A DNA stretch of 64,000 nucleotides from a virus, in the IMG/VR virus record IMGVR_UViG_3300013014_000024, positions 1 through 64,000 of that record. The stretch is one strand, 5' to 3'. Under the pieces are notes generated by a model. That model had not been told where the DNA came from, did no database searches, and saw nothing but the letters and a program-made list of their open reading frames with translations. Shown here piece by piece: positions 2,737 to 50,916 of the stretch (its first letter is position 1; each line of letters begins with the position of its first letter). The translations under genes and the position numbers were made by a program.

Positions 2737-3738
2737 ATGAAGATTATTATCAGTGAAAATCAATACAATTTAATTTTGGAAAGCAAGGAATTGGTTTCCT
2801 CTTTTGATAAATCAATTTCTAATTTGGCTAAAGCAAATTATTTTGGTTCAAATTTTTTTAATCTCGGAACTGAAGGTAGACCTTGGTGGGCATTTCTTGT
2901 GTTTGATAAACAAAATAGAAAAAAAATATTGAAATCAATAAATGATTGGAAAATTAATAATGATGTTGATATTAGTATATCTGATGAAAATTCATTAAGA
3001 AATAATAACCATAGGCATGGTATTTCCTTGTATAATGATATTAAAAACACTCCATCGGTGAGAGAGATGATAAGTTCTTCTCAATTGCAGAATCCCGATT
3101 CAATTGCGGTTTTCATTAGTCCAAAGAAAGAAATTGTTGATACCACAGGAAAAGTTTTTTATCATACTTCAAACACTCCTGATTTAGATAAAATTGGACT
3201 TAAACCATTTTCTCCCAATATGAAATATACAAAAAATATATATTTTTGGGATGATATTGCAACCGCTAGATTCTATGGTGCAAACAACGCAATTGATTAC
3301 TTTTATATATATAAAGTTAATTTGGATGGATATGATGTTTTTAAAGATACTGAAGAATCATATGACGCTTATTTTATTAATTTACCAGTAAGTCCCAATC
3401 GAGTTGAATTAGTTGAATCCCACAACAAATTTGATGAAAAAAAGGTAAATGCGTATGAAAAGAAAAACAAAGAAATAGAAGAAAAAATTAAAAGATTTGG
3501 TATAAAGTCTTCAAAAATTTTACCTTATATTAAATACGTAAAAAAAGGATTTGATATGTGTGATAGTTTTGATAATGGAGACGAGTATGGGGAATATATC
3601 ATTAATTCTGCTTTAGAAATTTTATTTAAAGAAATATCCGAAGATTTATCTTCTGATTTTGGTTTTAAGGTTCAAGATTTATGTGGTGAATGGTTTTTTC
3701 ATAAGTTAGTTATGGAGTTTGAAGATGAATGTTTTTAA
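2737..3738 (+). CDS. ISE-leader protein with possible ADP-ribosyltransferase-fold domain
   Basis: MKIIISENQ leader; FYHTS..IGLKP..IYF..IYKV pattern. Confidence 0.55.
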   Translation: MKIIISENQYNLILESKELVSSFDKSISNLAKANYFGSNFFNLGTEGRPWWAFLVFDKQNRKKILKSINDWKINNDVDISISDENSLRNNNHRHGISLYNDIKNTPSVREMISSSQLQNPDSIAVFISPKKEIVDTTGKVFYHTSNTPDLDKIGLKPFSPNMKYTKNIYFWDDIATARFYGANNAIDYFYIYKVNLDGYDVFKDTEESYDAYFINLPVSPNRVELVESHNKFDEKKVNAYEKKNKEIEEKIKRFGIKSSKILPYIKYVKKGFDMCDSFDNGDEYGEYIINSALEILFKEISEDLSSDFGFKVQDLCGEWFFHKLVMEFEDECF

Positions 3739-3844
3739 TGCCCCTCCATTGATAGTATTGATGGACTGACACTAATGGTGTTTCATTATCCTCACAATAA
3801 AATGTGGGGATTTTTTTATTAGAACATTTTCTTATCTTTGTAAT

Positions 3845-4252
3845 ATGATACACGATAAATTAAAGAAAATTATTTTTAATAAATTATATAAGGACTTATC
3901 TCATGTGGAAATTATCCCATATGAGGATTCAATATGGTTTATTGATAGGGAGAATAAGTATTGGTATTTTGAATATCAAAGGCCAGATATATTGTGGTGG
4001 AGATTTGGATATTTCAATGATTTCTTTACATTGTTTTCATTGGAACGTGAAGAATTCCAATGGGTTCTATCTGAGTGGGTGGAAGAGGTGTTAAATTGCA
4101 AGGTAAATACAACTGCAACTCATGCGCCATCCTCAATCCCAAAGGTGGAAGAGGTGTTAAATTTCAAGGTAACCAAACCCAATTTTGCAAGTACAAATTT
4201 GTTAAATCTGGTTGATAATGTTTTGGATTGTAGGGTAAATAAAACTTTCTAA
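3845..4252 (+). CDS. repeat-array protein, paralog A (frame continues past TAA to 4306)
   Basis: Paralog of 7725..8429; VEEVLNCKV repeats; TATCTTTG promoter. Confidence 0.8.
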   Translation: MIHDKLKKIIFNKLYKDLSHVEIIPYEDSIWFIDRENKYWYFEYQRPDILWWRFGYFNDFFTLFSLEREEFQWVLSEWVEEVLNCKVNTTATHAPSSIPKVEEVLNFKVTKPNFASTNLLNLVDNVLDCRVNKTF

Positions 4253-4306
4253 CTTGGTGTTGATGCTTTTAAAAAGGTGGAAGACGTTTTAAATGTAAAT
4301 AAATAA
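4078..4306 (+). repeat. 66-nt period in-frame repeat/variable-spacer array (4 units)
   Basis: GGTGGAAGAGGTGTTAAATTGCAAGGTAA-like at 4078, 4144, 4210, 4276. Confidence 0.85.
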
Positions 4307-4310
4307 AGAT

Positions 4311-4526
4311 ATGGATATTCATTATAAATTTTGGAGACAGAATATCTATAAAAATAGATGCCAGTTACAGGTTGGGTCCACATTTATTTTTAAGGGAAAT
4401 TACTGTGAGGTAATAAAAATGAGATTTAATTATTTTGTCTATAAAAAACAAATAGATGGTCTGACTTTTAGTATGGACTACCAAGATTATCTAAAAACCC
4501 CATCTGCTAAGGGTAGAAAATTATAA
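4311..4526 (+). CDS. hypothetical protein
   Basis: ORF in gene run. Confidence 0.6.
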   Translation: MDIHYKFWRQNIYKNRCQLQVGSTFIFKGNYCEVIKMRFNYFVYKKQIDGLTFSMDYQDYLKTPSAKGRKL

Positions 4527-4547
4527 AGTTTTTTGTATTTATCTGAT

Positions 4548-4877
4548 ATGAAATATGTTATTACAGAATCTCGTATTGATGAATTGGTTCAAAAATATAT
4601 AACCAATTATGTTGGTCCGTTGGAAAAACATACATCTCCCTCATTTGGTCAAACATATATTTGGTATACCAACTTAAATGGTGGTATGGTATTTGAAATT
4701 AGTGATAGTCTTTATCATGGTGTTGGATTGGGAGTTTTTGAACCTATGTGGAATACAGTTAAGGGGGTGTTTTCATTGTCTGATAATGATACAGATAAGT
4801 CATTTATGGTATGGATGTCAAATTATCTCGGAAAAAAAGAATATATTGAAGGAGTTTATACCTTTGAGAAAGATTAA
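4548..4877 (+). CDS. ITE-leader protein
   Basis: MKYVITESR; GTATTTAT upstream. Confidence 0.8.
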   Translation: MKYVITESRIDELVQKYITNYVGPLEKHTSPSFGQTYIWYTNLNGGMVFEISDSLYHGVGLGVFEPMWNTVKGVFSLSDNDTDKSFMVWMSNYLGKKEYIEGVYTFEKD

Positions 4878-4883
4878 ATTAAT

Positions 4884-5189
4884 ATGAAATACCTTATTAC
4901 AGAAGACCAATATGATAGACTAGTTCAATCTCCTAATAAGCTTTGGATATTAAGAAGATATGATTTGGTTAAGAAAACATCTATTGAAGTCTTGAAGTAT
5001 GTTAATCCTTGTAAGTTTAATAATTTTGATGATTATGAATCTGTTTTTTATAATCATTTAATGGACGATATTCATGAAGAATATTATCTGATTGATGATT
5101 TTGATTATGCTGGAGTCGTAAAAGAATTGGAGGAGCTATTTTATGTTGATGTCACTGAAAAATACTACGATGGTAGAAGAAGATGTTGA
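4884..5189 (+). CDS. ITE-leader protein
   Basis: MKYLITEDQ. Confidence 0.8.
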   Translation: MKYLITEDQYDRLVQSPNKLWILRRYDLVKKTSIEVLKYVNPCKFNNFDDYESVFYNHLMDDIHEEYYLIDDFDYAGVVKELEELFYVDVTEKYYDGRRRC

Positions 5190-5233
5190 TGGGTTTTTTG
5201 TTTTTATCAGTATTTATAATAAATTAATTTGTT

Positions 5234-6127
5234 ATGGGTAAAATAGTAAGGTTAACAGAATCTGATTTAGCTAAAATTATAAGTAGAATACTTAAGGAGT
5301 CAGACCCAAAAGTAGGAACTGGGAAAAAACCAAAGGATTCCGACCGAAGATTGTATACTGATGAAAACCCTAAGGATACTGTTACGGTAAAGTTCAGAAC
5401 CAAACAAGATATTATTGATACCTTGAGTAAAGATAGTTTCAAATCCAAATCACACGCCAGACAATCTCAAATTATTAATTTAATTCATCAAAGACTTAGA
5501 GTCGCTTTAGAAATAGCAAAAGACCCTGAGGTTAAAGATAGACTTAGAACCGCATTTGAATACATCAAAACTCGTAAAGAAAATTCCAAAAAGAAAACTG
5601 AGGAAATGAAAGAGGGTGAAATCACTGAAAAGTGCTGGAAAGGTTATACTCAAAAGGGAATGAAGACAATGTTTGGCAAAAAATATCCAAACTGTGTAAA
5701 AAAAGAATCTGTTGGAGAAACCGATGAGGCATCAAGTCCTGCACAACAAGCAGCAATTGCAATCAATATGAAGAAGAAGGGTATAAAACCCAAAAATGAA
5801 ACTTTATATGAAGATGACTATGGTTCAGTTGAAGAAACCAACTTTGTTGTTGGTGACTTATTGACTGAAGCGGAATATCAAGGTAGAAAAGTTCAACTTG
5901 GTAAAGTTATGCAAGGAGATGTGAAGAAGTCTAAGGTATATGTTAAAAACGATAAGGGTAAGGTTGTAAAAGTTAATTTTGGTTTTGGTGGAAGCTCTGC
6001 TCACGGTAAGAGAATGACAATCAAAAAAAATAATCCTGAACGTAGAAAATCGTTTAGAGCAAGACATAATTGCGATAATCCTGGACCAAGATGGAAACCA
6101 AGATATTGGTCTTGCAGAGCGTGGTGA
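5234..6127 (+). CDS. LTE-leader multi-module protein with basic C-terminal domain (DUF6321-like)
   Basis: MGKIVRLTESDL; CWKGY module; RRKSFRARHNC..YWSC..W. Confidence 0.75.
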   Translation: MGKIVRLTESDLAKIISRILKESDPKVGTGKKPKDSDRRLYTDENPKDTVTVKFRTKQDIIDTLSKDSFKSKSHARQSQIINLIHQRLRVALEIAKDPEVKDRLRTAFEYIKTRKENSKKKTEEMKEGEITEKCWKGYTQKGMKTMFGKKYPNCVKKESVGETDEASSPAQQAAIAINMKKKGIKPKNETLYEDDYGSVEETNFVVGDLLTEAEYQGRKVQLGKVMQGDVKKSKVYVKNDKGKVVKVNFGFGGSSAHGKRMTIKKNNPERRKSFRARHNCDNPGPRWKPRYWSCRAW

Positions 6128-6223
6128 TGAAATTGTATCTTATATTCGGAATATTAGTAAGGTTGCTAGTGTTGAAAATGATTTTAATATATATCCATAG
6201 TATTTATATTAAAATAAAATAAT

Positions 6224-6862
6224 ATGAAGCACTTATTAAATAACATGACGGAATCTGAAAAGAATGCAATCCGTGAACAACATACAGGTGGAATGAAAGT
6301 ATCTATAGATAATTTCTCAAAACTAGTTGAATCAAAACTTGGTAATGTAAAACCATTGGTTAATGAACAAGGATGGATGAAAACCATTAAAAATTTGGTA
6401 TCACCTGAATTAAAAACATTAAGTAAAAGTAAAGGTATGAATCATATTAACGCACCTGAATATATTAAAAACCTTATGTCAAAATATAGCTCTGTTAAAA
6501 TGACAGATTATGTTAGGTCATTGTTAAAACCTGTTCAGGATGAGGTTGCGGTTATAATGAATGATATTAAAAGAATGAAGCAATTTAAAAATCCTGTAAA
6601 GGCCGGAGAATATGACTATGTTGATTTTCTTATAGGTAATGCCTCTCAAATACCTAAAAAATTAAATGTTGCACCGGGACAACCGATTTATTTAGACTAT
6701 ATATATCAAGAAATAAGTGAGTTAAAAACTTATTTTGATGAAATCAAGGAAAAAAATCTATTAACCCAACAAGGATTGGTTATTTTAAATGATATGAGTA
6801 AAAATATTGATGATGCTATAGAAAACATACACACCGCACTCAGTAAAATGGCTGTAAAATAA
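6224..6862 (+). CDS. leader-bearing hypothetical protein
   Basis: MKHLLNNMTESEKNAIREQH. Confidence 0.8.
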   Translation: MKHLLNNMTESEKNAIREQHTGGMKVSIDNFSKLVESKLGNVKPLVNEQGWMKTIKNLVSPELKTLSKSKGMNHINAPEYIKNLMSKYSSVKMTDYVRSLLKPVQDEVAVIMNDIKRMKQFKNPVKAGEYDYVDFLIGNASQIPKKLNVAPGQPIYLDYIYQEISELKTYFDEIKEKNLLTQQGLVILNDMSKNIDDAIENIHTALSKMAVK

Positions 6863-6870
6863 TATTATTT

Positions 6871-7653
6871 ATGAAAATAATAATTACAGAAACTCAATAT
6901 AAACTTTTAATGGGTGAACAATTGCAAATTGCTCAACCTAGTAACCCTTCGGATTATTTGGGGAAAGGAAGACAATTTGAAAAAACAAATAAAATCCAAG
7001 ACCCATTAAGAATACCTTTAAATAAAGGGTCAAATCTAAACGAAATAATGGAAAGTTTCAGAGAAAAACTATTTTCACCCGCAGGAGTGGCGATTGAGGT
7101 TTTTTTAACATCGTTAGGTTGGACTGCACCCGCAGTTATGACAGCATATGGAGCTCTATTATCATTTGACATTTATAAAGCTGTAATTGGAGAAACAGAC
7201 TGGTTTAATATTGTTGTTGATGTTATCGGCATTGTAACTTCTGGTGCATTTTCAGGACTATTCGCGCCACTTATGAGAGGAGCGAAAAAAAGATTCAATT
7301 CAATATCCGAAGTCTTTAAATGGTTAAAAACAAATAAAATTTGGGCATCATTAAAACCATATTTATCAAAAATTATATCTGAATTATCGAATGTTGGTAA
7401 ATGGTTGTCAACAGGAATAAAATGGATTGCAGATAACACTGGATTAACTTTTCTTTTAAAATGGTCTTCTAAGATTTTAAGTTTTTTTAATAATATTTCA
7501 AAAGAAATTTTAAATTCTATAAGTGAAGTAACTTCAGAAGTTGTGGGTTCAATTATAAATAATAATAAAGTGGCTCAATCTGCAGGAACTGCCTCAAAAG
7601 CAGGAACTATTCAGTTGGCGCTTAATAAAGGTTCAAGTTATTTGGAAAAGTAA
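6871..7653 (+). CDS. ITE-leader protein with hydrophobic/amphipathic helices
   Basis: MKIIITETQ; Gly/Ala-rich hydrophobic segments. Confidence 0.8.
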   Translation: MKIIITETQYKLLMGEQLQIAQPSNPSDYLGKGRQFEKTNKIQDPLRIPLNKGSNLNEIMESFREKLFSPAGVAIEVFLTSLGWTAPAVMTAYGALLSFDIYKAVIGETDWFNIVVDVIGIVTSGAFSGLFAPLMRGAKKRFNSISEVFKWLKTNKIWASLKPYLSKIISELSNVGKWLSTGIKWIADNTGLTFLLKWSSKILSFFNNISKEILNSISEVTSEVVGSIINNNKVAQSAGTASKAGTIQLALNKGSSYLEK

Positions 7654-7724
7654 CTAAATATAACTAACCCCTCACCCAAAATGAGGGGTTTTTTTATTTC
7701 AAAAACAATTATTATCTTTGCAAT

Positions 7725-8429
7725 ATGATACACGATAAATTAAAGAAAATTATTTTTAATAAGTTATATAAGGATTTATCCAAAGCTGAAATAATTGACT
7801 ATAATGATTCAATATGGTTTATTGACAGGGAGAATAAGTATTGGTATTTTGAATATGAAAAAGTGGGAAGGTTGTATTGGAGATATGATTTCTTTCCTAA
7901 TTTTTTTTCTGTATTCTCTTTGGAAAGGGATGAATTTGAATCTATTATGTCAGAATGGATAGAAGAGGTGTTAAATTGTAAGGTACATGCAAAAAGTAGT
8001 GGTTTGTTGTGTAATAACAGTTGGGTGGAAGAGGCATTAAATTACAAGGTAAACAAAACTACAGGAAATTATGGTGTCTCAACTCAGTGGGTAGAAGAGG
8101 TGTTAGATTGCAAGGTGGATACAATCCAACCTCATAAGTTATACAGAGAAAGAACGGTAGAAGATATGTTGAATATAACTTTAATTAGAGGTCAAAATCT
8201 GCGTAATGTGGATGAGGTATTAGATTATAATGTAACTAGAACTGCATCCACTGGTCACCAAATTGGTAAGGTTAATCAGGTGTTAAATTACAAGGTAGAT
8301 ACAACACATGTTTCAATATCTAATGAAGCGACAAAAGTGGAATGGGTGTTAAATAAATTAAATATGGATTTTAACGATGATATTTCAGATTGGGATTGCA
8401 CCCTAATGGATGGATTGGAAGATGAATGA
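7725..8429 (+). CDS. repeat-array protein, paralog B
   Basis: MIHDKLKKIIFNKLYKDLS identical to 3845 start; 7 VEEVL repeats. Confidence 0.85.
   Translation: MIHDKLKKIIFNKLYKDLSKAEIIDYNDSIWFIDRENKYWYFEYEKVGRLYWRYDFFPNFFSVFSLERDEFESIMSEWIEEVLNCKVHAKSSGLLCNNSWVEEALNYKVNKTTGNYGVSTQWVEEVLDCKVDTIQPHKLYRERTVEDMLNITLIRGQNLRNVDEVLDYNVTRTASTGHQIGKVNQVLNYKVDTTHVSISNEATKVEWVLNKLNMDFNDDISDWDCTLMDGLEDE
7958..8360 (+). repeat. in-frame repeat/variable-spacer array (7 units)
   Basis: Units at 7958, 8024, 8090, 8156, 8207, 8270, 8336. Confidence 0.85.
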
Positions 8430-8484
8430 TATATTAACCCCACTTATTGGTAGGGTTTTTTATTTATTTGGGTATTTATTCTTA

Positions 8485-9009
8485 ATGAAATATATCATAA
8501 CAGAAGACCAGTTAGAAAAAGTAAAAGATAAAATTCTTAAATTATCATTTGATTTATTTGATAATAATTGGGATGATTTACAAGTTTTTTTAAAAAGAAA
8601 AGGTAATCCACCTTATATTCTTATTGGTACAGTTGAGTTAACTGATAGAAGAGATGTTGAAACTCTCGGTTCAGTTGTTGAAATATGGGGTAATCTAAGA
8701 GCCAATCACACTTCACTTCGTTCTTTGGGGAACCTAACAAAAGTTAGTGGTAATGTGAGTTTTTTTAAATCACCTATCCAATCTCTTGGAAATCTAACAT
8801 ATGTTTTTGGTAAAGTTGGTTTAAATTTAGCAGGTACAGATATCAAATCTCTTGGAAACTTAACCTTTGTTGCCGATGATTTAAATTTGAAAGGGACCCC
8901 ATTCTCAAGAGCCGCCAATCTCAATACAAGACAAGATATCTTAAATAAAGTTTTTGTTGGCGGAACAGTATTTTTGGACATGGAGGCGTTCAGAGGTTCT
9001 ATGAAATAA
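8485..9009 (+). CDS. ITE-leader protein with LRR-like repeats
   Basis: MKYIITEDQ; repeated SLGNLT.V.G.L. Confidence 0.8.
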   Translation: MKYIITEDQLEKVKDKILKLSFDLFDNNWDDLQVFLKRKGNPPYILIGTVELTDRRDVETLGSVVEIWGNLRANHTSLRSLGNLTKVSGNVSFFKSPIQSLGNLTYVFGKVGLNLAGTDIKSLGNLTFVADDLNLKGTPFSRAANLNTRQDILNKVFVGGTVFLDMEAFRGSMK

Positions 9010-12419: not shown

Positions 12420-12851
12420 ATGAGCAGAGTAAAAATTTCAACAGAAAAAGGGGATATGATTGCAGAATTATATGACAATGAAACCCCAATCACAGTAAAA
12501 AACTTTTTAGACCTTATTGGTAAAAAATTCTATGATGGATTGAACTTTCATAGGGTTATTCCTGGATTTGTTGCTCAAGGAGGGTGTCCAAATGGGATTG
12601 GTAATGGTGGACCTGGTTATACTATTGAGTGTGAGGTATCATCACCAAAGCAATTCCACGATAAAGGTGTTCTTTCTATGGCACATGCAGGTAGAAACAC
12701 AGGTGGTTCACAATTCTTTATTTGCCACAGTAGACAAAACACACAACATCTTGATGGAAATCATACTTGTTTTGGTAGAATAGTTGATGGTTTAGAAATA
12801 ATAGACCAAATACAACAAGGAAATAAAATAAATTCAATAGAATTAATTTAA
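12420..12851 (+). CDS. cyclophilin-type peptidyl-prolyl isomerase
   Basis: FYDGLNFHRVIPGFVAQGG, LSMAHAG, GSQFFI. Confidence 0.95.
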   Translation: MSRVKISTEKGDMIAELYDNETPITVKNFLDLIGKKFYDGLNFHRVIPGFVAQGGCPNGIGNGGPGYTIECEVSSPKQFHDKGVLSMAHAGRNTGGSQFFICHSRQNTQHLDGNHTCFGRIVDGLEIIDQIQQGNKINSIELI

Positions 12852-24016: not shown

Positions 24017-24218
24017 TTTCATTTTTTTTTACTGATTCGTTACCAATTTCTTGGTATGCGTCCCATAGTTGCCCTAAAGCGTATTCTAACTTAAATTTTA
24101 TTTCTTTATTTTTTTTGGATACAGGATGTTTTACACAATGGTCTTCCAAATTACACATTAATACATGTAACCTATCCATTAACTCCAAATAGTGACCATC
24201 ATTTATTTTATTTTTCAT
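23967..24218 (-). CDS. hypothetical protein
   Basis: ORF in operon. Confidence 0.6.
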   Translation of the reverse strand: MKNKINDGHYLELMDRLHVLMCNLEDHCVKHPVSKKNKEIKFKLEYALGQLWDAYQEIGNESVKKNENGIQKTIFRRHKNSKD

Positions 24219-24889
24219 GGATAATCAATTTGTTTTGTTTCAACATCAAAATCAACAACAATTGGTTTGTTTTCATACTCATATCTTTCATTAAGAACAG
24301 ATGCGTTTAAGAATTCAACACCATTAAAGTTTTTTTGACCATAAGCCCAATGTATATGACCACAAACATGAATTTTAGGTTGAACTTCCATGATTCTGTG
24401 AAACAAATCCTGACAACCAACTTGTTGACCTGAGATTGTATGGTCTAACATGCCAAAAGCAGGTCCGTGAGTTATCAATACATCTGTGTTTGGAGGTATT
24501 TTAGACCATTTTTCAGCCAATTTTTCCCCTCTTGGAAGATTGAATGCCCAATTATAGAATTCAGGTTGCCAAGGACTACCATAGAACTTTACCCCATCAA
24601 TTACAACCTCACTATCAAAAAGATAATGAACTCCCTTTTCTTTGAACTCATCTGCAATGTCAGTATGTAATTCAAATCCAAAGTCATGATTTCCTGCAAT
24701 GAAGATTTTGTGAGTAAAATCAGTATTACTGAACCAATCCAAAAAATTAACAATTTCGTGACTCTTACCCACACTAGTACAATCACCAGCATGGACAAGA
24801 ACATGACCACTTCCAAGTATATTACCATAGGCATTACTTGTGAGATGCTTGTGTTTGTTGTGAGTGTCGCTGATGAATGTTATTTTCAT
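24215..24889 (-). CDS. metallophosphoesterase (MPPED-like)
   Basis: ISDTH, HAGD, AGNHD, THGP, GHIH. Confidence 0.9.
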   Translation of the reverse strand: MKITFISDTHNKHKHLTSNAYGNILGSGHVLVHAGDCTSVGKSHEIVNFLDWFSNTDFTHKIFIAGNHDFGFELHTDIADEFKEKGVHYLFDSEVVIDGVKFYGSPWQPEFYNWAFNLPRGEKLAEKWSKIPPNTDVLITHGPAFGMLDHTISGQQVGCQDLFHRIMEVQPKIHVCGHIHWAYGQKNFNGVEFLNASVLNERYEYENKPIVVDFDVETKQIDYP

Positions 24890-28665: not shown

Positions 28666-29781
28666 TTATTTTTTGTCTTTTTTATCATCTGATGTGGCGT
28701 ACTTAATACCCATAATTGTGCCAACTATTGAGAAGGCGTTTGTAAGTAATACGCTGAACATATTACTCCAAGTTGAACCAATTATTTGAGTATCTTTCTG
28801 TGTAAGAAGTGCAAATGAGTACATTATTGTAGTTATGAATCCAACACTAATAATAACTCCCAATGCACATTTAACGATAATTTTTATGAGTTCGTTTTGA
28901 CTCTTTTTAAGAGTTGCATCTAAATCGTTCAAAGCAACATTTTTCTCCTTTTCGATGGCATCTTTTAGTTTCTCCGATTCCTTTAACTGTAGTTGCAAAT
29001 CTTTTGATAATAAATCAATTTCCTTTTTATTATTTACCGATTCAGTAACGTCAGTCGCAATTTTAATTACATTTGTGACATTTCCTTTACTATCAAAGAC
29101 AGGATTGTATGTTGCTTGTAAATAGATAGTAGAACCATCTACTTTTTTTCTTTCAAATATCCCATCTAAAAATTTACCATTATTTAAGTTCTGCCAAAAC
29201 TTAATATACTCATCGGATTTTGAATATTCATAACTGACAAAAATACTATGGTGTTTTCCAACAACTTGATTTTTTTCATTAGATTTGAAACCCATTGTTT
29301 CTAAGAAAATAGAATTAGCATCCAAAATAAAACCATTCATATCAAAAGTAATAGTGGCAGTACTTTTGTTAATTGCGTCCACTTGTTTTTTACTATTAAC
29401 AATTGCAGTAATGTCAGTAGCAACTTTCATTACTTTAGTAATTGTACCACTCTCATCAAAAATAGGGTTGTATGTCGCCTGTAAGTTGATAAGACTACCA
29501 TCTCTTTTCCTTCTTTCAAATTCTCCTTTATAATACTTACCACTTCTTAATATGTCCCAAAACTTTTCGTACTCCAACGACCTTGCATAATCTTCACATA
29601 CAAAAATACTATGATGTTTACCAACAATTTCCGCGTGCTCATCTTCCCCATATCCCATTGCTTTCAAAAAAATCGCATTAACACCCAAAATTTTTCCAGT
29701 AAGGTCAAAATAAATAAGGGCGTTACTTCTATTAATCGCCTCCATCCTACTCAATAACTCTTCTTTGGATAGATTTTTCAT
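28666..29781 (-). CDS. tandem PAS-domain membrane protein
   Basis: Two BdlA/Aer-like PAS repeats (G.IL..N..FL..MG..VGKHHSIFV..FW..L..G..LQATYNP.FD), coiled coil, 2 TM. Confidence 0.9.
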   Translation of the reverse strand: MKNLSKEELLSRMEAINRSNALIYFDLTGKILGVNAIFLKAMGYGEDEHAEIVGKHHSIFVCEDYARSLEYEKFWDILRSGKYYKGEFERRKRDGSLINLQATYNPIFDESGTITKVMKVATDITAIVNSKKQVDAINKSTATITFDMNGFILDANSIFLETMGFKSNEKNQVVGKHHSIFVSYEYSKSDEYIKFWQNLNNGKFLDGIFERKKVDGSTIYLQATYNPVFDSKGNVTNVIKIATDVTESVNNKKEIDLLSKDLQLQLKESEKLKDAIEKEKNVALNDLDATLKKSQNELIKIIVKCALGVIISVGFITTIMYSFALLTQKDTQIIGSTWSNMFSVLLTNAFSIVGTIMGIKYATSDDKKDKK

Positions 29782-36688: not shown

Positions 36689-37819
36689 TTAATTTGATAA
36701 AGGTGCTTTAATACTTGGATGTGATTCGTAACCTATCAATTCAAAACAATCCGGTCTATAACTCATTATTTTTTCATTGAATTTTTTTTCACCCAAGTGT
36801 TCCTTAACTGATTCGTGCATGTACCAATTTCTTTCAGTAATTTTTACTTTAGGTAATTCGTATGGGGTCCTAAGAATTTGTTCTTTTGCTTGTTCGATAT
36901 GATTCGAATATAAATGAACATCTCCTAAGTTACCAATCAATTCATCGGGAACCATGTTTACTTCTTTAGCAATAATCTCTAGTAGTAAACCGTAGGATGC
37001 TATGTTAAATGGTAAACCTAAAAATGTATCTACTGAGCGTTGATTCCACATTAATGAGATTGCTCGTTTAGGAATAGTGTTATCCATATCAACTGTCTCC
37101 TTTATCATATTCCATCCTATGCCGCCTCTATTTTCATAGTCGTACCCTGCAAGAATGATTCTTTCTTTCTCACTCAACTCTCTTGTATAAACTTGAAATC
37201 CATAATGACAAGGCGGTAATACCATTTGGTCTAACTCACCTACATTCCAAGCACTAACCATTAATCTTCTACTATCAGGATTTGTTTTGAGTTCGTTGAT
37301 TAGGTTTGCGATTTGGTCTACCTTTCCATTTACGTAAGCAATTTGTTCTCCATTTGTAAACTTATCTGTGAACTTCCAACTTCTCCATTGCTTACCATAA
37401 ATTGGACCTAATTCACCCCACTTCTTAGCAAACTTATCATCGGTTTTAATTTTATTTATGAATTCTTCTTTAGTCATTTTCCTTACTTCAATATCACTAC
37501 CTTCATATTTAAATGTTTTTTCTACATTGGGGTAAGCATTGCAATAATTCTTATAAGCATCACCATCCCAAATATGACAACCATTATCAACAAGGAATTT
37601 GATATTAGTATCTCCTCTCAAGAACCATAACAATTCAGTCACCATAGTTTTCCAAGCCATCTTCTTTGTGGTTAGTAATGGAAAACCTTCACTCATTTTA
37701 TGACGGATTTGTCTTCCGAATACTGATATAGTACCAGTTCCTGTCCTATCTGTTTTTTCAACACCCCAATGAAGAATGTCTTCAAGTAATGCTTGATATC
37801 TTGCGTCTAAATTATTCAT
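36689..37819 (-). CDS. thyA: thymidylate synthase
   Basis: DRTGTGT, ELLWFLRG, LPPCH, QRSVD.FLGLPFNIASY, GDVHLY.NH. Confidence 0.97.
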   Translation of the reverse strand: MNNLDARYQALLEDILHWGVEKTDRTGTGTISVFGRQIRHKMSEGFPLLTTKKMAWKTMVTELLWFLRGDTNIKFLVDNGCHIWDGDAYKNYCNAYPNVEKTFKYEGSDIEVRKMTKEEFINKIKTDDKFAKKWGELGPIYGKQWRSWKFTDKFTNGEQIAYVNGKVDQIANLINELKTNPDSRRLMVSAWNVGELDQMVLPPCHYGFQVYTRELSEKERIILAGYDYENRGGIGWNMIKETVDMDNTIPKRAISLMWNQRSVDTFLGLPFNIASYGLLLEIIAKEVNMVPDELIGNLGDVHLYSNHIEQAKEQILRTPYELPKVKITERNWYMHESVKEHLGEKKFNEKIMSYRPDCFELIGYESHPSIKAPLSN

Positions 37820-49714: not shown

Positions 49715-50395
49715 TTATTTACCCTTCTTTTTTGTTTTAACAATCTCGTCAATAATTCCGTATTGAAGAGCTTCTTCAGCATCCAACCACAAATCTCTTT
49801 GAGCATCATTCATAACTTGTTCTGTGGTTTTACCACAAAATTCACCCAAAAGGTCAAACAAAATCTTGTTTACTTTTTCCCACTCAATCATATTGATACG
49901 AGCGTCTTGAATGTTACCTCCAGTACCACCAGAACTTTGGTGTAACATCGTTTTAGAATATTTTAGAGAACTACGTTTTCCTTTGGTTCCCGCTCCGAGG
50001 AGAACCGAACCCATAGAAGCCGCCATACCCGTATTTACCGTTTTAATATCACAAGCGATATATTGCATTACATCTACCATAGACAATCCTGATTTAACAC
50101 TACCACCAGGAGAGTCAATATGCATTGTGATATCTGTTTTGTCTGAAGAATCCAAGAACATTAACTGAGCCTGAACAACAGTTGACATCCTGTCATCAAC
50201 TTCACCCGCAACCCACAGCAAACGGTCTCTCATGAGACGTGAGAATATATCCATCTGAGTTACTCTCATTTCTCTTTCTTCCAAAATGTATGGAGTCATT
50301 GAGTTTTTAATGTGAGCTCCAACATAATGAAGGTCAAGTGAGTTTTTCCCAAGATGTTTTGTGTAATAACTTTGAAATTCATTTCCCAAATTCAT
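49715..50395 (-). CDS. clpP: ATP-dependent Clp protease proteolytic subunit
   Basis: DIFSRL, IDSPGGSV, G.AASMG, MLHQ, RDLWLDAEEAL.YG.ID. Confidence 0.95.
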   Translation of the reverse strand: MNLGNEFQSYYTKHLGKNSLDLHYVGAHIKNSMTPYILEEREMRVTQMDIFSRLMRDRLLWVAGEVDDRMSTVVQAQLMFLDSSDKTDITMHIDSPGGSVKSGLSMVDVMQYIACDIKTVNTGMAASMGSVLLGAGTKGKRSSLKYSKTMLHQSSGGTGGNIQDARINMIEWEKVNKILFDLLGEFCGKTTEQVMNDAQRDLWLDAEEALQYGIIDEIVKTKKKGK

Positions 50396-50427: not shown

Positions 50428-50916
50428 TTAATTAAAAAAACTCTTTTGGAGGTCATCCCAAACATTTTGTAAAACATAATTATCGTTCATAATAGTAGGA
50501 ACAAATGGTATGTGGTTCATTTTCATTTTGGCTTCTTCAGGAGTTCTATTTGCCTTTTTCAGATTACAACTGAAACAAGATGTTACCAGATTTTCCCAAG
50601 TATTTGCACCTCCTCTTGATTTAGGTATTACATGGTCAAGTGTTAATGATTTTTTTGACCCACAATAAACACATTCGTATCCATCTCTTTTATAAATCCT
50701 TGTTCTGTTTGCTCTATACGCTCTTTTATGAAACTTAATATATGTCAATAATCTTATAACTATTGGTCTCACATATTTCTTAACCCCACTAATCATATCT
50801 TTCATGTCCGATTTAATAATTTCGGCTTTACCTTTATAAACAAGGTTAAATCCCCTCTGTATTGTTGTTACATTGATTGGGCTATAGTCAAAATTTAATA
50901 CAAGTACTTGTTCCAT
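50428..50916 (-). CDS. HNH endonuclease (McrA-like)
   Basis: RD.Y.C.YCG..LTLDHVIPKSRGG..WENLV..C..CN.KK. Confidence 0.92.
   Translation of the reverse strand: MEQVLVLNFDYSPINVTTIQRGFNLVYKGKAEIIKSDMKDMISGVKKYVRPIVIRLLTYIKFHKRAYRANRTRIYKRDGYECVYCGSKKSLTLDHVIPKSRGGANTWENLVTSCFSCNLKKANRTPEEAKMKMNHIPFVPTIMNDNYVLQNVWDDLQKSFFN

Follow-up and report, generated by a model that had tools for sequence, protein, structure and literature searches.

Two paralogous genes with repeat arrays in frame

The window analysed here is the first 64 kb of a 97.7-kb viral contig (IMG/VR record IMGVR_UViG_3300013014_000024, positions 1 to 64,000) with a GC (guanine plus cytosine) content of 30%, and its subject is a repeat–insert array, laid out like a CRISPR (short palindromic repeats that are clustered and regularly interspaced) array, that lies in frame within each of two genes. 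The contig is estimated to be 32% complete, which implies a genome of jumbo size. The two open reading frames (ORFs), gene A (3845–4252, 135 amino acids, aa) and gene B (7725–8429, 234 aa), both on the + strand, are paralogues, as a sequence-only reading of the window had claimed: they have in common an N-terminal domain (N-domain) of ~78 aa, the proteins are 54% identical, and the first 175 nucleotides (nt) including the upstream region are 84% identical. In gene A (family hidden Markov model E=2.4e-69) the N-domain (3845–4077) is followed by a decayed three-unit array spanning 4078–4311, with repeats at 4078–4113, 4144–4179, 4210–4245 and 4276–4311 and inserts at 4114–4143, 4180–4209 and 4246–4275. 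The third insert contains an in-frame TAA (4250–4252), the last repeat is decayed and lies beyond this stop, and the frame read past the TAA closes at 4304–4306 within the decayed fourth unit, much as had been described. Gene B consists of the N-domain (7725–7957), a seven-unit array (7958–8371) and an acidic C-terminal tail (8372–8426). Its repeats lie at 7958–7993, 8024–8059, 8090–8125 and 8156–8191, the fourth being decayed, and at 8207–8242, 8270–8305 and 8336–8371, the last being terminal and decayed; they are separated by 30-nt inserts at 7994–8023, 8060–8089, 8126–8155 and 8306–8335 and by two short ones at 8192–8206 (15 nt) and 8243–8269 (27 nt). All features of both arrays are on the + strand.

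Repeat copies were found at every position that the sequence-only reading had listed, and the inserts between them all differ, as it had stated, and are mutually unrelated. The sizes it gave, a repeat of ~30 nt and a spacer of ~36 nt, were swapped, since family-wide 36 nt are conserved and 30 nt variable. Its 66-nt period holds for all of gene A (start-to-start spacings 66, 66, 66) and for most of gene B (66, 66, 66, 51, 63, 66), the exceptions being the 51- and 63-nt steps. The 15- and 27-nt inserts are in-frame deletions and hence a sign of decay as ordinary coding sequence. With their degenerate repeats, these deletions and the TAA in gene A, both arrays look like old, decaying members of their family rather than active ones. 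The 97.7-kb record contains no further copy of the repeat on either strand, and Tandem Repeats Finder detected no array because the inserts are unrelated to one another.

A family of phage proteins with a folded domain and a disordered tail

A search of a large protein collection returned 459 relatives of 132–295 aa with the same layout and 1–8 units, the unit interval being 22 aa in 456 of 510 cases, and a profile-guided scan of IMG/VR yielded 31 loci on contigs of up to 326 kb with 60 family genes, often 2–5 in tandem. Genomes carry several paralogues, each with a different set of cassettes. Among 389 distinct units from 120 database proteins, residues 1–9, 11 and 12 (VEEVLNcKVxTT) are almost invariant, whilst residues 13–22 have an entropy of 4.0–4.2 bits at all ten positions and a composition like that of translated random DNA. 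A structure prediction, which had been proposed as a check, gave a folded N-domain in gene B (AlphaFold2; residues 1–87, predicted local distance difference test, pLDDT, ~90) followed by a repeat region of pLDDT ~30 (residues 88–186), so that the array is predicted to be translated as a disordered tail in which constant 12-aa and variable 10-aa modules alternate between the N-domain and the C-terminal end. A solenoid of the leucine-rich-repeat type was rejected on account of this pLDDT, the entropy at the ten variable positions and the lack of a match to any Pfam repeat family. Neither protein A nor protein B has a match in Pfam or PHROGs, DNA and protein searches of a phage collection gave no match to genes A and B, and fold searches with the N-domain reached at best Z 4.7 against solved structures and only uncharacterised phage proteins in BFVD and the ESM Atlas. 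An Rfam scan of 3700–8600 gave chance matches only.

The repeat is constrained as nucleotides

Across the family, 26 related phage loci supplied 167 distinct units of 66 nt, in which exactly 36 nt are conserved and 30 nt variable. The consensus of the conserved block is G GTG GAA GAG GTn TTA AAT nnT AAG GTA nnn ACA AC. The block ignores codon borders, running from base −1, the last base of the preceding variable codon, to base 35, the second base of codon 12. Base −1 is G in 166 of the 167 units whatever residue is encoded, third codon positions within the block (0.95–1.95 bits) are as fixed as first and second ones, and codon 7 is nnT, its first two bases free and its third fixed. Position 36 and all 30 insert positions carry 0.0–0.2 bits at every codon phase. 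The 389 protein units independently bear this out: amino acids without an NNG codon make up 6% at residue 22 versus 25–36% elsewhere, with methionine plus tryptophan at 17.5%, and at residue 7 amino acids without an NNY codon are never used. N-domain columns with conserved residues contain mixed synonymous codons, and across 638 diverged gene pairs identical residues have the same codon in 77% of repeat codons versus 53% of N-domain codons. At a cut-off of ≤7 mismatches in the 30 specified positions, 315 copies of the 36-bp element were found in 660 kb of related phage DNA.

The repeat is thus constrained at the DNA or RNA level, and its conserved synonymous sites say that the phage profits from keeping the element. 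Repeats within a gene share synonymous variants (e.g. in locus L031), a mark of concerted evolution, which does not explain the codon-ignoring borders or the recurrence of the same rare G-ending codons across lineages. Overlapping reading frames were rejected as the cause, the consensus having a TAA in both other sense frames and there being no long antisense ORF; slippery sites for frameshifting, promoter or iteron readings and GC-biased conversion were likewise discarded, none fitting the pattern of fixed and free consensus positions.

The array is kept open as protein

All 315 repeat copies lie inside ORFs of the family and on the sense strand. Inserts are exactly 30 nt long in 142 of 145 distinct cases, few resemble each other, and none of 142 contains an in-frame stop, whilst the other frames are interrupted in 28–63% of inserts. 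As 36 plus 30 nt equal 66 nt or 22 codons, each added unit preserves the frame, a property of any 36+30 array. Where an insert is shared between arrays, its variants comprise 12 codons with synonymous changes only and 13 with residue changes, against a neutral expectation of 24% synonymous (ratio of non-synonymous to synonymous rates, dN/dS, ~0.35, from a small sample of 25 codons).

Arrays change at the N-domain end

Polar growth had been suggested from the more degenerate distal repeats. This degeneracy is visible in the window and extends across the family, where repeats degenerate toward the C-terminal end (rho=0.24, p=0.003); growth itself was seen in sister phages, the window arrays having the look of decaying, not active, ones. 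Grouping orthologous arrays by shared inserts gave four groups with 21 array versions, among which there are 15 distinct first inserts versus 6 distinct last inserts. The last insert is common to all versions in two of the four groups and to five of six in the other two, and inserts private to one version account for 33% at the first position, 17% at internal ones and 5% at the last (Fisher's exact test, first versus last, p=0.045). The spacers cannot be aligned with one another and vary between relatives, unlike what ordinary old tandem repeats had been expected to show.

The clearest single case is the array on contig L164, found by a metagenome scan, which equals those of L163 and L166 plus one unit, made of a variant of the first repeat and a new 30-bp insert, at the N-domain end. 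In the extra unit the first-repeat variant (...GGTGTCCACAAC), limited to position 1 in the other arrays, occurs a second time, and L006 shows the same pattern of an additional N-domain-end unit with a copy of that variant. A deletion between two identical repeats could relate L164 to L163 as well; even so, a first repeat duplicated on both sides of a unique 30-bp insert must have been produced by insertion. In the window's own lineage (P0001–P0008, proteins only) whole-unit gains and losses and one replaced first unit were found. Turnover at the N-domain, or ‘leader’, end together with a copied first repeat, as in the sister phages, is the signature of Cas1–Cas2 integration. Of the two options in the sequence-only reading, that of a protein accreting hypervariable cassettes at one fixed site fits the nucleotide-level repeat, the unrelated 30-nt inserts and the gain at the N-domain end in sister phages; the other, a coding-embedded guide array, found no support.

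Composition of the inserts and missing enzymes

The inserts have a GC content of 40.7%, the phage one of 30.9%; sampling stop-free 30-mers from phage DNA would yield 32%, and sources of ~39% GC reproduce the observed value. The earlier statement that the window holds no cas or reverse transcriptase (RT) gene was borne out by a Pfam and PADLOC census of its ORFs of at least 95 aa and by searches of the whole record, in which Cas1, Cas13b and RT were all absent, as they were from related records, four to five in number, of which two are complete; the RT family RVT_1 was missing from the same record and four related ones. The sole Cas9 match in the window is a 162-aa HNH nuclease.

Similarity to type VI-B repeats

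The dimensions of the unit recall type VI-B CRISPR systems, whose 36-nt repeats with GUUG/CAAC ends alternate with 30-nt spacers and give 66-nt CRISPR RNAs (crRNAs) (10.1101/092577). In Flavobacterium columnare the type II-C Cas1 fills the VI-B array in trans, the ACAAC end being common to II-C and VI-B repeats (PMC8092290). A scan with a pattern of VI-B features retrieved 120 arrays, nearly all from Bacteroidota and including those of B. zoohelcum, S. buccae and F. columnare; in both retrieved loci that were checked the neighbouring gene is Cas13b by NCBIfam. The phage element shares 16–23 of its 30 specified positions with the retrieved repeats, 12 of these being imposed by the retrieval pattern. 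With a covariance model built from 74 real VI-B repeats, the best match in the window is the first repeat of gene A (4078–4113, full register, 17.9 bits, E=0.28), and in 91 kb of sister loci all 23 matches with E≤1 are phage elements in full register (18–25 bits). The phage repeat has the ends GGUG...CAAC, with pairs 1–36, 3–34 and 4–33 formed in 95%, 99% and 74% of elements and pair 2–35 in 8%; some real arrays likewise begin GGTG. Real VI-B leaders share no motif with the phage sequence that lies upstream of the first repeat.

Some further sequences bear on this resemblance. The B. zoohelcum repeat (L113) is open in the phage's frame (G|TTG GAA CTG CTC TCA TTT TGG AGG GTA ATC ACA AC), and the common GTTGTAAC... 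type of VI-B repeat has a TAA and a TGA in that frame. L110, a contig of a Bacteroidaceae metagenome-assembled genome, has at 403–570 of its minus strand an ordinary array that is non-coding, every frame containing stops; its 36-nt repeat, GGTGGAAGCGG...GGTAGTTACAAC, starts like the phage element. A second type of element, GGTTGAGAATACCcTACAAATGaAgGTcACAAAcAC, encoding (W)VENTLQMKVTNT, ends many genes of the MKYLITESQ family as a single unit (in L003, L005, L007, L008, L010, L014, L023, L026 and L029) and forms a three-unit in-frame array at L024:1089–1257 (+ strand). Its antisense strand is the best VI-B look-alike in the phage loci (24.5–25.4 bits), with the inner hairpin intact and a GGTGTT start as in Sphingobacteriaceae repeats.

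Flanking signals and neighbouring genes

A terminator-like hairpin with a T-run (3788–3820, + strand) closes the gene upstream of, and directly before, gene A, and a second one (7666–7700, + strand) lies upstream of gene B. Each gene has a TATCTTTG box, 3833–3840 and 7713–7720 respectively (both + strand), that ends 4 nt before its ATG and fits TAnnTTTG. This motif occurs within 40 nt upstream of 18 of the 140 ORF starts in the record versus 4.7±2.1 at random positions, and in 8 cases stands exactly 4 nt before the ATG. We take the TAnnTTTG boxes to be the −7-type promoter motif of Bacteroidota and on this basis infer Bacteroidota as the host phylum; their placement suggests Bacteroidota-type promoters and leaderless mRNAs, probably for gene A too.

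About 20 of the 140 ORFs in the record start with one of two related motifs of 15–20 aa, MKxIvrLTESDLxRIIKRvLxE or MKYIITESQl, and have mutually unrelated remainders. Within the window they begin at 849, 1818, 2737, 4548, 4884, 5234, 6871, ~8485, 9983, ~10358, ~10641, 16511, 17551, 20887, 21415, 31355 and 35171 (− strand), and in the rest of the record at 64100 and 92464 (both − strand). Such N-termini might act as a common signal for targeting or packaging. In sister loci, the MKYLITESQ genes are distant relatives of the N-domain of genes A and B. Pfam matches among the window ORFs include a cyclophilin-type prolyl isomerase, a metallophosphatase, PAS domains, a thymidylate synthase, a Clp protease and HNH nuclease domains. 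Candidate ORFs for these matches, assigned by ORF length and start only as the census does not give the family per ORF, lie at 12420–12851 and, on the − strand, at 28666–29781, 36689–37819 and 49715–50395. Scans of single ORFs gave a PADLOC PDC-S10 match for 24215–24889 and a stand-alone HNH nuclease for 50428–50916, both on the − strand.

Origin and role of the arrays

The reading that we favour, with a probability of roughly 0.5 for the whole, is that a CRISPR-type array lies in frame in a phage gene, is probably extended by the host Cas1–Cas2 and may have its repeat kept as a mimic of the host CRISPR repeat. That the phage gene holds a CRISPR-type array in frame has good support. Extension by an integrase of CRISPR type, probably that of the host, is supported by the polarity, the repeat duplication, the geometry and the lack of phage enzymes, and is weakened by the lack of protospacers. 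For the selected role, a direct pay-off as a mimic or decoy of host CRISPR components appears somewhat more likely than selection for evolvability. Genes A and B belong to a large gene family of jumbo phages, probably infecting Bacteroidota, in which a folded N-domain of ~80 aa precedes a repeat–spacer array. The host's type II-C Cas1–Cas2 would integrate units in trans, as on the VI-B arrays of F. columnare; since the phages have no cas1, cas13b or RT, the integrase would have to be the host's. Only stop-free inserts would survive, because the C-terminal end must stay attached. The repeat may be kept recognisable, even at synonymous sites, since a mimic of the host repeat would pay directly, which is the least certain step; like RNA anti-CRISPRs it might act as a decoy, whether of the host's Cas proteins or of its adaptation complex, the peptide cassettes being a tolerated linker.

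A number of results weigh against this reading. The match to VI-B repeats is sub-threshold (17.9–25 bits, E 0.02–0.4), and ~12 of the matching columns were imposed by the retrieval pattern. The inner hairpin is weak or absent, four of nine pairs being non-standard and the window fold reaching −2.2 kcal/mol versus −7 to −11 kcal/mol in real repeats; moreover covariation is lacking in the element and none of its fold z-scores reaches significance. Recognition of the repeat by Cas13b is reported to depend on structure, via the inner hairpin (PMC8209922), and with a weak hairpin and no fold supported by covariation we rejected filing the element as a VI-B repeat. Comparing the spacers with host and phage DNA, as the sequence-only reading had recommended, revealed no source of the inserts: no protospacer was found for any insert in the 660 kb of related phage DNA, the phage's own genome or five large phage records, in ~1,600 sampled Bacteroidota genomes, in phage and plasmid collections, in four exact-match scans of IMG/VR or in one metagenome scan, the two marginal genome matches from these searches lying outside the inserts. 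Phage-derived inserts, though expected if the host Cas1–Cas2 acted during infection, were absent from these searches, and the GC content of inserts does not change with their place in the array. Owing to concerted evolution the units are not independent of one another. Finally, the excess of synonymous changes among insert variants is a hint that the peptides are of importance, in better agreement with a role of the cassettes than with a pure decoy; together with the strict maintenance of the ORF it keeps diversification of the cassettes alive as an explanation.

In two related explanations the peptides themselves are what is selected. We regard it as possible, if tentatively, that a CRISPR adaptation integrase, most likely the host Cas1–Cas2, writes captured 30-bp pieces of DNA into phage genes, each one adding a module of 22 codons, and that the repeat is maintained so that a library of 10-aa cassettes, carried on the conserved domain for display, is built up and renewed. 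Adaptive diversification more generally, in which captured 30-bp pieces become 10-aa cassettes in a displayed disordered tail and useful ones are selected, would be a DNA-capture analogue of diversity-generating retroelements; it would account for the continuity of the ORF through every array, the synonymous excess in shared-insert variants (dN/dS well below one), the near-random composition at the ten positions and the presence of several paralogues per genome with different cassette sets. We hold it to be rather doubtful, as its benefit is of second order (evolvability) and depends on a host enzyme, searches of Pfam, PHROGs and folds offer no function or partner for the N-domain, the synonymous excess comes from few codons, and the arrays of the window are decaying. 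An unrecognised integrase or recombinase of the phage's own, acting independently of host Cas1–Cas2, would make the likeness to VI-B convergent or coincidental. The sub-threshold similarity without a retained hairpin and the failure to find either phage- or host-derived protospacers agree with such an origin, as do the facts that the repeat is also the end of the last N-domain helix and that a related family ends in a homologous WVExxLxxKV motif written in different nucleotides. We nonetheless judge it unlikely: no candidate enzyme was seen (no Cas1, no RT), II-C and VI-B repeats in the likely host phylum have exactly this 36/30 geometry and the same leader-distal ACAAC end, and the second type of element is also VI-B-like (antisense) though it was not used in designing the pattern.

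Less probable still is an ordinary tandem protein repeat, its 22-aa units made up of a conserved structural segment and a loop that evolves fast, with unequal crossing-over and gene conversion keeping the units alike. The array is indeed translated, close relatives do differ by whole units, and concerted evolution does occur, as the synonymous variants in L031 show, but the sharp borders of conservation are out of codon phase (G at base −1, nnT at codon 7, position 36 free), the inserts are without residue preferences in a region predicted to be disordered and not a solenoid, and recombination copies only existing inserts, yet new and unique 30-bp inserts adjoin a duplicated first repeat. That the genes encode a multi-core precursor of modified or cleaved peptides (a propeptide, or one akin to ribosomally synthesised and post-translationally modified peptides), with a leader domain, repeated recognition sequences and hypervariable cores, we consider very improbable. 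A conserved leader followed by constant 12-aa and variable 10-aa modules has the appropriate form; such a precursor would leave the nucleotide-level constraint and the polar growth unexplained, and no ATP-grasp, radical-SAM, YcaO or lanthipeptide enzyme is among the 25 listed of the 31 Pfam families in window ORFs, where a Clp protease is present.

CRISPR arrays are treated as non-coding, and here CRISPR geometry and CRISPR-like one-ended growth coincide with a selected ORF, in a family of at least several hundred genes in large phages; array finders and gene callers would each annotate just half of such a locus. If the host Cas1–Cas2 extends these genes, viral coding sequence is open to editing by the adaptation machinery, which would be a new route of protein evolution, and the arrays may represent a new form of counter-defence, acting as a repeat mimic embedded in coding sequence or else as an adaptation sink; if cassettes are written by an integrase, this would be natural protein diversification by DNA capture. 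F. columnare, with its II-C and VI-B systems and a cas1 deletion strain, is an existing model open to direct experiment.

Comparison with known systems

The phage arrays resemble generic CRISPR arrays in their near-identical direct repeats (36 bp within a range of 23–47 bp, the window copies being partly decayed), in their unique spacers of constant length and, in sister phages only, in polarised spacer gain with a duplicated first repeat. They differ from them in that neither Cas1 nor Cas13b was found in the records searched, two of them complete, and in that the array is part of an ORF open through all units, unlike the non-coding crRNA precursor of a generic array. With type VI-B arrays they have in common the 36-bp repeat, 30-bp spacers and 66-nt unit, the G.TG 5' end and GGTA-nnn-ACAAC 3' end (also as G.TG...GGTAnnnACAAC ends), leader-end growth with repeat duplication, degenerate terminal repeats, the same likely host phylum and the lack of an integrase of their own. 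They depart from VI-B arrays in lying inside an ORF that is stop-free and translated, so that the ‘leader’ is a protein-coding domain, in a 5' end of GGUG rather than GUUG, in not keeping the inner hairpin and poly-U loop, and in having no cas13b in cis and no protospacers found.

Other Cas-less arrays are known from phages. The parts that we consulted of the literature on Cas-less arrays of huge phages (PMC7162821), RNA anti-CRISPRs and CRISPR parts on mobile elements contain no description of an in-frame translated array, and those on VIPR guide-RNA systems (10.64898/2026.10.15.759431) nothing that links them to the present arrays. The compact arrays of huge phages have a median of six repeats and spacers that target other phages or host genes, and use of the host Cas proteins has been proposed (PMC7162821). 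As there, the arrays described here are short (3–9 repeats), belong to jumbo phages and come without Cas1, Cas2 or an effector; those of huge phages, by contrast, are ordinary CRISPR arrays with targets, whilst these are an in-frame part of a conserved gene family for which no targets were found. RNA anti-CRISPRs (Racrs) are solitary repeat units and mini-arrays in viruses that give small non-coding RNAs with repeats close to the host's (PMC10651486; review PMC11656645). The likeness would lie in a CRISPR-repeat mimic that a phage carries in the absence of cas genes; forms with a single unit are frequent in the wider gene family here, and the nearest real repeats share 23 of the 30 specified positions with 12 forced by the pattern. 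Unlike a Racr, the element here is coding. Diversity-generating retroelements likewise yield a phage protein with a hypervariable C-terminal part, but do so with a reverse transcriptase and a template repeat, neither of which occurs here, and by adenine-directed point changes, whereas the variation in these phage genes consists of whole 30-bp inserts.

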